DNA of 2,082 bases from Escherichia coli (GTDB lineage Bacteria; Pseudomonadota; Gammaproteobacteria; Enterobacterales; Enterobacteriaceae), in NCBI RefSeq assembly GCF_003334765.1, contig NZ_QOWT01000074.1. One strand, written 5' to 3'. Shown in pieces: positions 328 through 1,346 of this stretch (within the stretch, counting starts at the first letter, position 1; each line of letters starts with the position of its first letter). The notes beneath the pieces were generated by a model. It made no database searches. It was not told where the DNA came from and saw only the letters and a program-made list of their open reading frames with translations. A program made the translations under genes and the position numbers.

Positions 328-523
328 TCCCTCCTCACAGCCTTACCCGTAACCGGTTTTTTACATTAAAAAAACAACGCTGAAAATTCAACCGTCAGTC
401 CGGAGACGACCGTTCGGGTTATCACAGAGTGCCTGAGACAGTGTCCTGCCGGAGGTCACTTCAGGGACTCTGCGCATTTTTTACGACGTGGCTATTCCGT
501 ATGAACCATACGGAGATTTAACC
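328..523. promoter_or_regulatory. Divergent intergenic region, presumably carrying promoters for the minus-strand small gene and the plus-strand YagK/YfjJ-like gene
   Basis: 196-bp non-coding gap between two divergently oriented start codons. It contains an AT-rich palindrome (356..375) and a perfect 7-bp inverted repeat at 497..513. I found only weak sigma70-like hexamers (for example TTTACA at 360..365 on plus; TTGAAT/TAATGT on minus at 391..386 and 368..363), so no precise promoter is called. Confidence 0.3.
497..513 (+). promoter_or_regulatory. Perfect inverted repeat CCGTATG-aac-CATACGG overlapping the Shine-Dalgarno of the downstream gene
   Basis: Read directly: 497..503 CCGTATG, loop 504..506, 507..513 CATACGG (exact reverse complement). 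The GGAG at 511..514 is the likely Shine-Dalgarno for the ATG at 524 and lies partly in the 3' arm. Confidence 0.3.
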
Positions 524-1093
524 ATGACCTACAAATACAACCCCTTCTGGCAGCAACGTATTCGTGAGACGGTGCGGCACGCACTGAATGTTCATCCCCG
601 CCTGACGGCATTGCGGGTTGACCTGCGTCTCCCGGATGTACCGGCAGCAACGGACGCAGCTGTGATATCCCGCTTCATCAATGCCCTGAAAGCCCGAATC
701 GACGCTTACCAGAAACGTAAGCATCGGGAAGGTAAACGCGTGCATCCCACAACCCTGCATTACGTCTGGGCCCGGGAGTTTGGGGAGTGCAAAGGTAAAA
801 AACACTATCACCTGATGCTGCTGGTCAACCGGGATACCTGGTGTCGTGCCGGTGATTACCGCGCTCCGGAGTCTCTGGCCGGGATGATTAAACAGGCGTG
901 GTGCAGTGCCCTGGGAGTGGATGTCGGGTGCCATGCCACGCTGGTGCATTTCCCGGCCTGGCCGGCGGTGTGGCTGGAACGCGATGATGACACTGGCTTT
1001 CAGCAGGTGCTGGAACGTGCTGACTATCTGGCGAAGGAACATACCAAAGCTCACTGCACCGGTGAGCGCAATTTTGGCTGTAGCCGGAGTTGA
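524..1093 (+). CDS. YagK/YfjJ family protein (Pfam 'Inovirus Gp2'-like), putative replication-initiation or nicking protein of a mobile element
   Basis: ORF track 488..1093 (+). I recognise the overall sequence character (N-terminal MTYKYNPFW..., HYVWAREFGE, KKHYHLMLLVNRD) as the YagK/YfjJ family found in E. coli cryptic prophages CP4-6 and CP4-57; this is from memory, not a search. HYHLMLL at 803..823 resembles an HUH-type motif. Start preferred at ATG 524 (GGAG at 511..514, 9-nt spacer) rather than GTG 488, which would add 12 residues and place the 497..513 palindrome inside the coding sequence. Stop TGA at 1091..1093. Confidence 0.8.
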   Translation: MTYKYNPFWQQRIRETVRHALNVHPRLTALRVDLRLPDVPAATDAAVISRFINALKARIDAYQKRKHREGKRVHPTTLHYVWAREFGECKGKKHYHLMLLVNRDTWCRAGDYRAPESLAGMIKQAWCSALGVDVGCHATLVHFPAWPAVWLERDDDTGFQQVLERADYLAKEHTKAHCTGERNFGCSRS

Positions 1094-1169
1094 GCACGAC
1101 TGGCGCGCCAATACCCGGCAAACCAAAAGTATGGGTTGTTGTCTGGCGGCAACGATGTATCCACTCGCC

Positions 1170-1193
1170 CACTGACTGTTTTTTACGTCAGTG
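1170..1193. repeat. Inverted repeat CACTGAC-N10-GTCAGTG with a T6 run in the loop
   Basis: Read directly: 1170..1176 CACTGAC pairs with 1187..1193 GTCAGTG; the loop 1177..1186 is tgttttttac. It lies in the 253-bp gap between the YagK/YfjJ-like gene and the first Cys-rich gene. The T-run is inside the loop, not 3' of the stem, so it is not a canonical intrinsic terminator. Confidence 0.3.
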
Positions 1194-1346
1194 TTCCATT
1201 GTGTGACAACCACAGTGCTGTAACAGCAACCAGCCTGCTTTACCCAAACTCCAGTCCAGATTTTAACTGAACCGCCATTCACACCCTGACCACGCTGCCC
1301 GTACCGGGACGGCTGTTGCCTGCGTGTCGTCTGGCGGCTGAGGTAT

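Follow-up and report, generated by a model that had tools for sequence, protein, structure and literature searches.

Composition of the gap

The DNA analysed here is a 2082-bp stretch of Escherichia coli contig NZ_QOWT01000074.1 (the window), and its subject is the intergenic gap at 1094 to 1352 (259 nt, + strand). The gap lies between the stop codon of a YagK/YfjJ gene (524 to 1093, + strand; 'inovirus Gp2 family', HUH-nuclease-like product), here called type A, and the conserved start codon of zn1 (1353 to 1754, + strand), which RefSeq and the Prokaryotic Genome Annotation Pipeline (PGAP) annotate as a 'putative zinc ribbon protein'. From 5' to 3' it comprises the remnant of a second, type-B YagK/YfjJ gene (1100 to 1177, + strand), a conserved non-coding segment (Block H, 1172 to 1215), a variable spacer (1216 to 1262) and a conserved GC-rich leader (Block Z, 1264 to 1340, + strand). 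Block Z lies immediately 5' of the zn1 Shine-Dalgarno sequence (GAGG, 1340 to 1343, + strand). The gap is best regarded, on present evidence and with fair confidence, as a composite island spacer built from the type-B remnant and the two conserved cis-blocks, and not as a replication origin.

A preliminary description of this DNA had ended the gap at 1346. PGAP and all relatives place the zn1 start at 1353 (ATGTACGCAAAA) and the ATG at 1347 is not conserved, so that the gap should end at 1352. Several features listed in that description were located where it had put them. The hairpin CACTGAC-N10-GTCAGTG is present at 1170 to 1193 (arms 1170 to 1176 and 1187 to 1193), and the direct repeat matches at 12 of 13 positions between copy 1, GTTGTCTGGCGGC (1138 to 1150, + strand), and copy 2, GTCGTCTGGCGGC (1326 to 1338, + strand). 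The gap was also correctly said to hold no credible open reading frame (ORF): two small + strand ORFs (38 and 44 amino acids (aa), both with TTG starts) cover private or poorly conserved segments. The palindrome GGCGCGCC exists as a single occurrence, although it lies at 1102 to 1109 and not at 1112 to 1119 (off by 10), inside a 10-bp palindrome, TGGCGCGCCA (1101 to 1110).

Chance levels were obtained from dinucleotide shuffles of the 253-nt gap and of the 2-kb window. Of the shuffled 253-nt gaps, 16% contained a perfect 7-bp hairpin whose loop did not exceed 12 nt. Shuffled windows held an average of 1.1 direct repeats of 12/13 quality, which agrees with the earlier estimate of about one by chance per 2 kb; such a pair inside the gap alone was seen in 1.9% of shuffles. 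The window has 31 direct-repeat families, of which this pair is D14, and there are no tandem repeats or iterons. As single-stranded DNA (ssDNA) the hairpin forms a locally stable fold (-6.5 kcal/mol, z = -3.8). The whole gap as RNA is unremarkable (z = -0.44 on the + strand and -1.21 on the - strand), and both window strands gave zero matches in Rfam 15 at E <= 1. GC skew, of which a cumulative analysis had been proposed as a check, was calculated over the 2-kb window; it has no gap-specific sign change and is uninformative.

Type-B gene remnant and formation of the hairpin

The gap was compared with those of E. coli representatives and of ~50 further loci, obtained by a scan of species-representative genomes and by look-ups of zinc-ribbon homologues (numbered with the prefix L). 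The in-frame translation from 1094, ...LARQYPANQKYGLLSGGNDVSTRPLT, is 56% identical over 27 aa to the type-B C-terminus LAYMTKIQQKHGLLLYGCNEVSARPLT (tblastn E 2e-5). The Smith-Waterman score is 55, against 27.4 +/- 3.4 for shuffled sequences, with 0/400 shuffles reaching 55. The remnant holds the last ~27 codons of the gene without the final ~8 codons and the stop. Synteny is consistent with this assignment, the type-B gene directly preceding Block H in relatives. The 10-bp palindrome lies inside the remnant, as does repeat copy 1, which corresponds to codons L-L-S-G-G.

At intact loci the type-B stop is the TGA of '...CTGACTGTTTTTTACGTCAG', i.e. the TGAC just before the T-run TTTTTTAC of Block H. 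In the nucleotide alignment with Salmonella L066, 26 nt flanked by two CTGAC repeats are missing from the window. The deletion joins the P-L-T codons (CCA CTG AC) of the remnant to the T-run that normally follows the type-B stop, and it thereby created the perfect 7-bp left arm CACTGAC of the hairpin. The left arm is therefore remnant coding sequence; Block H supplies, with its first bases, the loop and the right arm. The stem is lost in L008, L055, L059 and L068 and is 4 to 5 bp long in L056 and L066. At the orthologous sites the ssDNA z-scores are +0.42 (L008), -0.57 (L055), +0.22 (L056), -0.11 (L068) and, for the 5-bp stem of L066, -2.0. Judged from these alignments, the palindrome, repeat copy 1 and the strong hairpin arose as side effects of the decay of a coding sequence. 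A tempting but wrong candidate for an origin is thereby removed.

Variation of the gap among related islands

When the gap alone was used in a sensitive search, only its last ~73 nt were common to all island variants. Gap length in related loci is 142 to 381 nt, rising to ~690 nt where alpA is present. E. coli gaps are of 165 nt (L002, L003), 259 nt (the window) and 371 to 381 nt (L005, L006, L008); in L007, strain GN02050, an IS100 insertion is tolerated inside the variable spacer at window 1220 to 1224 (GTAAC). Nothing equivalent to the segment 1094 to 1171, with its palindrome and repeat copy 1, exists in the other E. coli gap types examined, and its alignment to Citrobacter-, Klebsiella- and Salmonella-type loci, via the type-B remnant, is only loose. 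Repeat copy 1 was found in no other arrangement; since it is confined to the island type of the window, the repeat pair lacks conservation.

Loci of the type-B arrangement occur in Citrobacter freundii, Klebsiella aerogenes, Salmonella and some E. coli. Their order is a 197-aa gene, the type-B YagK/YfjJ gene (~190 aa, HYHAH...YLTK), a gap of 142 to 180 nt and zn1. The AlpA-type arrangement was found at nine loci from at least six other genera (Hafnia, Siccibacter, Tenebrionibacter, Superficieibacter, Serratia, Citrobacter braakii and others). Here the order is the type-A gene, a terminator, an alpA-like excisionase/regulator gene, a 44-aa CxxC ORF, zn1 and zn2, the second zinc-ribbon gene. The terminator is a GC-rich hairpin followed by a T-run, with compensated stems (CCGGCC/GGCCGG, CGGGC/GCCCG and GGTC/GACC).

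The gaps of L005, L006 and L008 contain a 78-nt copy (97% identity) of the type-A upstream region (window 449 to 526), followed by a deletion. In these loci and in L052 the full type-B gene is followed by the type-A promoter-leader and first codons, and then by Block H (e.g. L008 2330-2700). The combination of a type-B gene with a 78-nt type-A stub shows that paralogous HUH genes have repeatedly recombined and undergone deletion at this locus. A type-A gene cassette bounded exactly by TTTTTTAC was considered and is not supported: the homology of L008 and L052 to the window already begins 28 nt ahead of the upstream T-run, and the T-run downstream is part of the type-B 3' flank.

The window is part of a mosaic CP4-like island module. 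With the mosaic islands of E. coli (CP4-6, CP4-44, CP4-57 and the pheV-, selC- and leuX-type islands) the locus shares a truncated paralogue, deletion between short repeats, insertion sequences and many alternative gene orders at one site. No difference from them was seen, the decay described here being their ordinary state. The findings are unsurprising for island biology, and their value lies mainly in annotation and in the pruning of hypotheses.

Upstream protein and the origin hypothesis

The type-A protein matches YagK_YfjJ_C in Pfam (6e-48) and, weakly, REP_ORF2-G2P. Fourteen homologues were aligned, among them a paralogue at 21% identity, and in all of them H94-x-H96 and Y168-L-A-K171 are invariant. 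The protein has the features by which the HUH superfamily is recognised, namely the HUH motif, a catalytic tyrosine in a YxxK context and a Rep-like alpha/beta fold. Foldseek matches for the YagK/YfjJ protein were weak, a PDB sequence search with a Gp2 profile returned nothing significant, and nicking or replication data for any YagK/YfjJ protein were not found in the literature. From its motifs and modelled fold, the protein looks like an HUH nuclease. The premise that a rep-like, rolling-circle-type initiator lies upstream of the gap was thus sound, and the structural and motif support for YagK/YfjJ proteins as HUH nucleases is a testable outcome.

On that premise the hairpin, or Block H with TTTTTTAC, could be the site that the YagK/YfjJ protein nicks when the excised island begins rolling-circle replication or is transferred. 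In favour of this, Block H shows conservation and lies right against the stop codon of type-B HUH genes. Three copies of TTTTTTAC are present on the window + strand (357, 477 and 1179), always in non-coding DNA near the type-A gene, and is conserved ~47 nt upstream of type-A genes in other genera. The nick made by the Reps of circular Rep-encoding ssDNA (CRESS) viruses and geminiviruses falls in a ...TATTAC loop, and the cleavage site of IS608 TnpA follows TTAC; Salmonella L056 has the sequence TTTATTAC.

The comparative evidence runs the other way. The hairpin stem is born of a deletion and is not conserved, and there are no iterons or Rep-binding direct repeats by the hairpin. AlpA-type loci have no Block H, and the T-run there ends an ordinary terminator whose stems are compensated. 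The T-run is gone from the L002-type gap, and the window keeps Block H although its type-B gene survives only as the remnant. Similarity between the gap and the type-A upstream region is limited to a 9-mer, GTTTTTTAC, and 22% of shuffles score equally; a separate proposal that 1094 to 1264 is a diverged copy of that region was dropped on this local alignment. A cis site should co-occur with its cognate Rep gene, but Block H goes with type-B genes and Block Z with zn1. Weighing both sides, we consider a nick site of this kind unlikely, and the narrower proposition that Block H or TTTTTTAC would be the target of an HUH nuclease is likewise doubtful.

Known rolling-circle origins (the pMV158 double-strand origin, the nonanucleotide of CRESS-DNA viruses and geminiviruses, and the rep-ori of Staphylococcus aureus pathogenicity islands) resemble the locus in having an HUH-type gene beside a non-coding hairpin, and the gap hairpin shares with them a T-rich ...TTAC loop. 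Unlike those origins, the gap stem is unconserved, was made by a deletion and has no iterons, and the conserved DNA of the gap tracks zn1 or the type-B gene and not the adjacent type-A gene. The preliminary description had proposed an origin or nick site here, and had named a lack of conservation of hairpin and repeats in homologous loci as the finding that would count against it. Neither is conserved in those loci. Comparative alignment, suggested there as a way to find conserved hairpins or iterons, instead identified a stem that is lineage-specific through deletion, and a palindrome and repeat copy 1 that sit in the remnant of one island type. The two repeat copies had further been described there as bracketing the gap; copy 2 is part of an element whose linkage is to zn1 rather than the rep-like gene.

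Upstream of type-A genes in many genera, TTTTTTAC forms part of a module, TTTTTTAC-N6-CCGGT-N21-ACCGG, which is followed directly by the AG of the Shine-Dalgarno sequence (window 477-520; L010 2450-2500; equivalents in L009, L011-L016, L058, L061 and L071). In L011 and L015 a G-C pair of this module covaries to A-U (CCAGT...ACTGG). The window counterpart is a perfect 8-bp hairpin, TCCGTATG-AAC-CATACGGA, at 497 to 515, with a 3' arm that includes the ribosome-binding-site GGAG of the type-A gene. The hairpin module is a possible translational or autoregulatory element. That TTTTTTAC and the adjoining short inverted repeats would be the recognition or nick site of YagK/YfjJ HUH nucleases is very unlikely. 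Were TTTTTTAC such a nick site, the Gp2-like genes of CP4-type islands would constitute an undescribed HUH-driven replication or mobilisation module with Block H as its cis site.

Block Z and the zinc-ribbon leader

Block Z is intact ahead of 32 of 33 distinct loci with zn1 or a zn1 remnant (the 29 loci of alignment A6, the window, L051, L009 and L012); the exception is L011, where it is truncated. It occurs in no Gp2 locus without zn1, among more than 20 such loci, and it remains with zn1 where the Gp2 gene has been deleted (L004) or is absent (L064). Its position 5' of the zn1 Shine-Dalgarno sequence is fixed in Escherichia, Citrobacter, Klebsiella, Salmonella, Serratia, Hafnia, Siccibacter, Budvicia and others. 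Identity to the Citrobacter and Klebsiella versions is 87 to 91%, as against 61 to 70% for the zn1 coding sequence. Single-base indels and a frame change in L014 exclude a coding function on either strand. Repeat copy 2 lies within Block Z, and its TGGCGG (1332 to 1337) is complementary to CCGCCA at 1272 to 1277. A second candidate pairing joins GGACGGC (1305 to 1311) and GTCGTCT (1326 to 1332).

The fixed position directly 5' of the Shine-Dalgarno sequence would suit a structured cis-regulatory RNA forming the 5' leader of zn1. Variable positions sit in predicted loops (CCC-N4/5-GGG with eight loop sequences, and GGC-N4-GCC), and the 4- or 5-nt spacing of the CCC...GGG dyad fits a hairpin better than an operator in double-stranded DNA. 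Isolated compensatory changes were seen in L054 (CCCG/CGGG to CCCA/UGGG, and GACGGC/GUCGUC to GAAGAC/GUCUUC) and in L019 (C-G to U-A). Set against these observations, the single-sequence thermodynamic z-score is just -1.55 and Block Z has no Rfam match at E <= 1. RNAalifold proposed a long hairpin from 13 sequences (covariation term -0.1), but with 29 sequences there was no stable consensus, only a few short stems (-4.8 kcal/mol, covariation -0.04). Two mutually exclusive models built by hand fit about equally well. In these models 87 to 88% of cells are paired, with 4 and 7 double-change pairs and shuffle ranks of 175/500 and 13/500, respectively, both having been derived from the same sequences on which they were scored. 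The stems are mostly invariant and so carry little information, which weighs against an RNA structure. Taken together, the sequence evidence for Block Z as an RNA structure is suggestive, and we regard a structured cis-regulatory leader as a tentative possibility.

Structured 5' leaders such as RNA thermometers, autoregulatory leaders of the ribosomal-protein type and leaders bound by CsrA share with Block Z a conserved element (here ~77 nt) fixed upstream of the Shine-Dalgarno sequence, conservation above that of the coding sequence, and variable positions in putative loops. Block Z differs from them in having no significant covariation, stable consensus fold, Rfam family or known ligand or binding protein. 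A block of ~77 nt tied to DUF7828 zinc-ribbon genes across Enterobacterales is nevertheless testable, as a so far undescribed instance of a familiar kind of element.

The conservation of Block Z might instead reflect a sigma-54 promoter (GG-N10-GC) driving zn1-zn2. The consensus for this class is TGGCAC-N5-TTGC. At 1303 to 1318, CGGGACGGCTGTTGCC agrees with it at 8 of 10 positions with the correct spacing, and the GG and GC are retained in most Enterobacteriaceae versions of Block Z. The candidate has G at position -23, where C is usual, and the TT of the -12 element varies in relatives (AC, AT, GC, CT). The GC is gone in Budvicia and the register is gone in L009 and L012, and no enhancer-binding protein gene was seen nearby. 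A sigma-54 promoter is accordingly rated as highly improbable.

Block H and transcription of the zinc-ribbon genes

Block H reads TGAC-TG-TTTTTTAC-GTCA-N9-(GTGTGACAACCAC) and starts at the type-B stop codon in relatives. Between the window and Citrobacter, Klebsiella and Salmonella its identity is 75 to 86%, compared with 25 to 44% for the adjacent spacer and 61 to 70% for the zn1 coding sequence. In AlpA-type loci it is missing from the position after the type-A gene. Its occurrence at the ends of type-B HUH genes makes it a second testable conserved block.

A consensus scan of the gap found no + strand promoter or terminator. No intrinsic terminator is predicted on the + strand in the gap, and the T-run of the window sits in the hairpin loop. 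The lack of an intrinsic terminator between the type-A gene and zn1 suggests that zn1-zn2 are probably transcribed at least partly by read-through.

The conserved parts of the gap most likely act in cis-regulation of the zinc-ribbon operon, a role suggested by their anatomy, homologies, conservation and linkage and one that could be exerted on RNA or on DNA. Transcripts covering zn1-zn2 would either run on from the type-A gene or start at a weak promoter within Block H. Block H would probably serve as a promoter, operator or boundary signal for the operon. Block Z would act in cis on zn1, most likely within the 5' untranslated region (UTR), through translation, stability or protein binding beside the Shine-Dalgarno sequence. 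A regulatory region or long 5' UTR had been offered in the preliminary description as the alternative to an origin. That alternative is upheld in so far as the 3' third of the gap holds a conserved cis-element ahead of zn1; its RNA-structure component is at the suggestive level given above.

Several points weigh against this interpretation. A sigma-70 promoter was not found in the gap by the consensus scan, and by eye Block H has only weak -35/-10 matches on both strands. In the L002-type gap the left half of Block H is missing and the T-run is gone. In Rosenbergiella L011 (3639-3675) a clean 56-nt deletion between CCACG repeats has removed the 3' part of Block Z together with the Shine-Dalgarno sequence. 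These two losses indicate that neither block is indispensable in every lineage. The promoters, transcription start sites and read-through called on at zn1-zn2 are, moreover, ones that we infer. As a separate observation, the zn1 gene of L011 is left without an obvious ribosome-binding site.

Block H might alternatively be a minus-strand promoter for an antisense or small RNA directed into the 3' end of the rep-like gene. Hexamers read by eye on that strand are TTGTCA (-35, 5/6) and TAAAAA (-10, 4/6), separated by an 18-nt spacer. They coincide exactly with the two conserved sub-blocks of Block H, and the spacer between them is variable. The -10 hexamer lacks the T at -7, however, and the consensus scan did not report a promoter. 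No terminator or conserved antisense structure follows, and the antisense target in the window would be a pseudogene remnant. We therefore hold a minus-strand promoter to be quite unlikely, and cis-regulation of zn1-zn2 is the role preferred for Block H.

Prevalence and neighbouring genes of the module

Of 5426 complete E. coli genomes, 3816 had a megablast match to the window; the median was 2 module copies per genome, nearly all of them chromosomal. Matches over the full length number ~2700 genomes, and strain BEC1-S17-ESBL-09 is one that carries this island type. About 70% of complete E. coli thus have the module, mostly as two copies, and no function is known for any of its genes. PADLOC and NCBIfam gave zero matches for its proteins, a window match was looked for in the K-12 CP4-44 region and none was found, and a functional study was not found in the literature on YagK, YfjJ, DUF7828 and PF11726.

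Two matches lay outside ordinary E. coli records. The only match in the phage collection was L050 (OR844780.1), an UNVERIFIED 4.5-kb contig named 'Escherichia phage ECO111 5-P' with 3.7x coverage. L018 (NZ_WACP01000054.1) is a 683-bp 'Paenibacillus tengchongensis' contig with 0.59x coverage, encoding a Gp2 protein 94% identical to that of the window. Both records are probably contaminating E. coli island DNA.

The zn1 product is assigned by Pfam to DUF7828 and Zn_ribbon_11. The zn2 gene (+ strand) starts at 1742 and overlaps the end of zn1 by 13 nt (1742 to 1754, ATGCGAATTCTGA), an arrangement suggestive of translationally coupled zinc-ribbon genes. All that is left of zn1 in L009 and L012 is a short N-terminal stub joined to the front of zn2.

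In AlpA-type islands an ORF of 44 to 45 aa with two CxxC pairs (MEKRRRTQPWTIPPRWTCPRCQRRYCGIKPCPVCFRPSGAPAQP) is conserved between alpA and zn1 (L010 3483-3617; L014 3477-3614; also L009, L012, L061, L062 and L071). It is absent from the gene calls of those contigs and had no PHROG or PADLOC match. After zn2, these islands carry a divergent YagK/YfjJ-like gene of ~211 aa (L010 4591-5226; also L013, L014 and L017), so that the zinc-ribbon pair is bracketed by two HUH-like genes.

At the other end of the window, the RefSeq annotation of the best match includes a small hypothetical gene on the minus strand (124 to 327). Its product (66/67 aa) carries a CxxC...CxxC zinc ribbon at the N-terminus and a hydrophobic helix at the C-terminus, gives weak matches to PHROGs with function unassigned, and accompanies the type-A gene in E. 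coli. Between this minus-strand 67-aa gene and the divergent type-A gene lies an AT-rich perfect inverted repeat, GTTTTTT-ACATTA-AAAAAAC (356 to 375). It overlaps the sole + strand promoter-like site of the region, TTTACA-16-GAAAAT (360 to 387).
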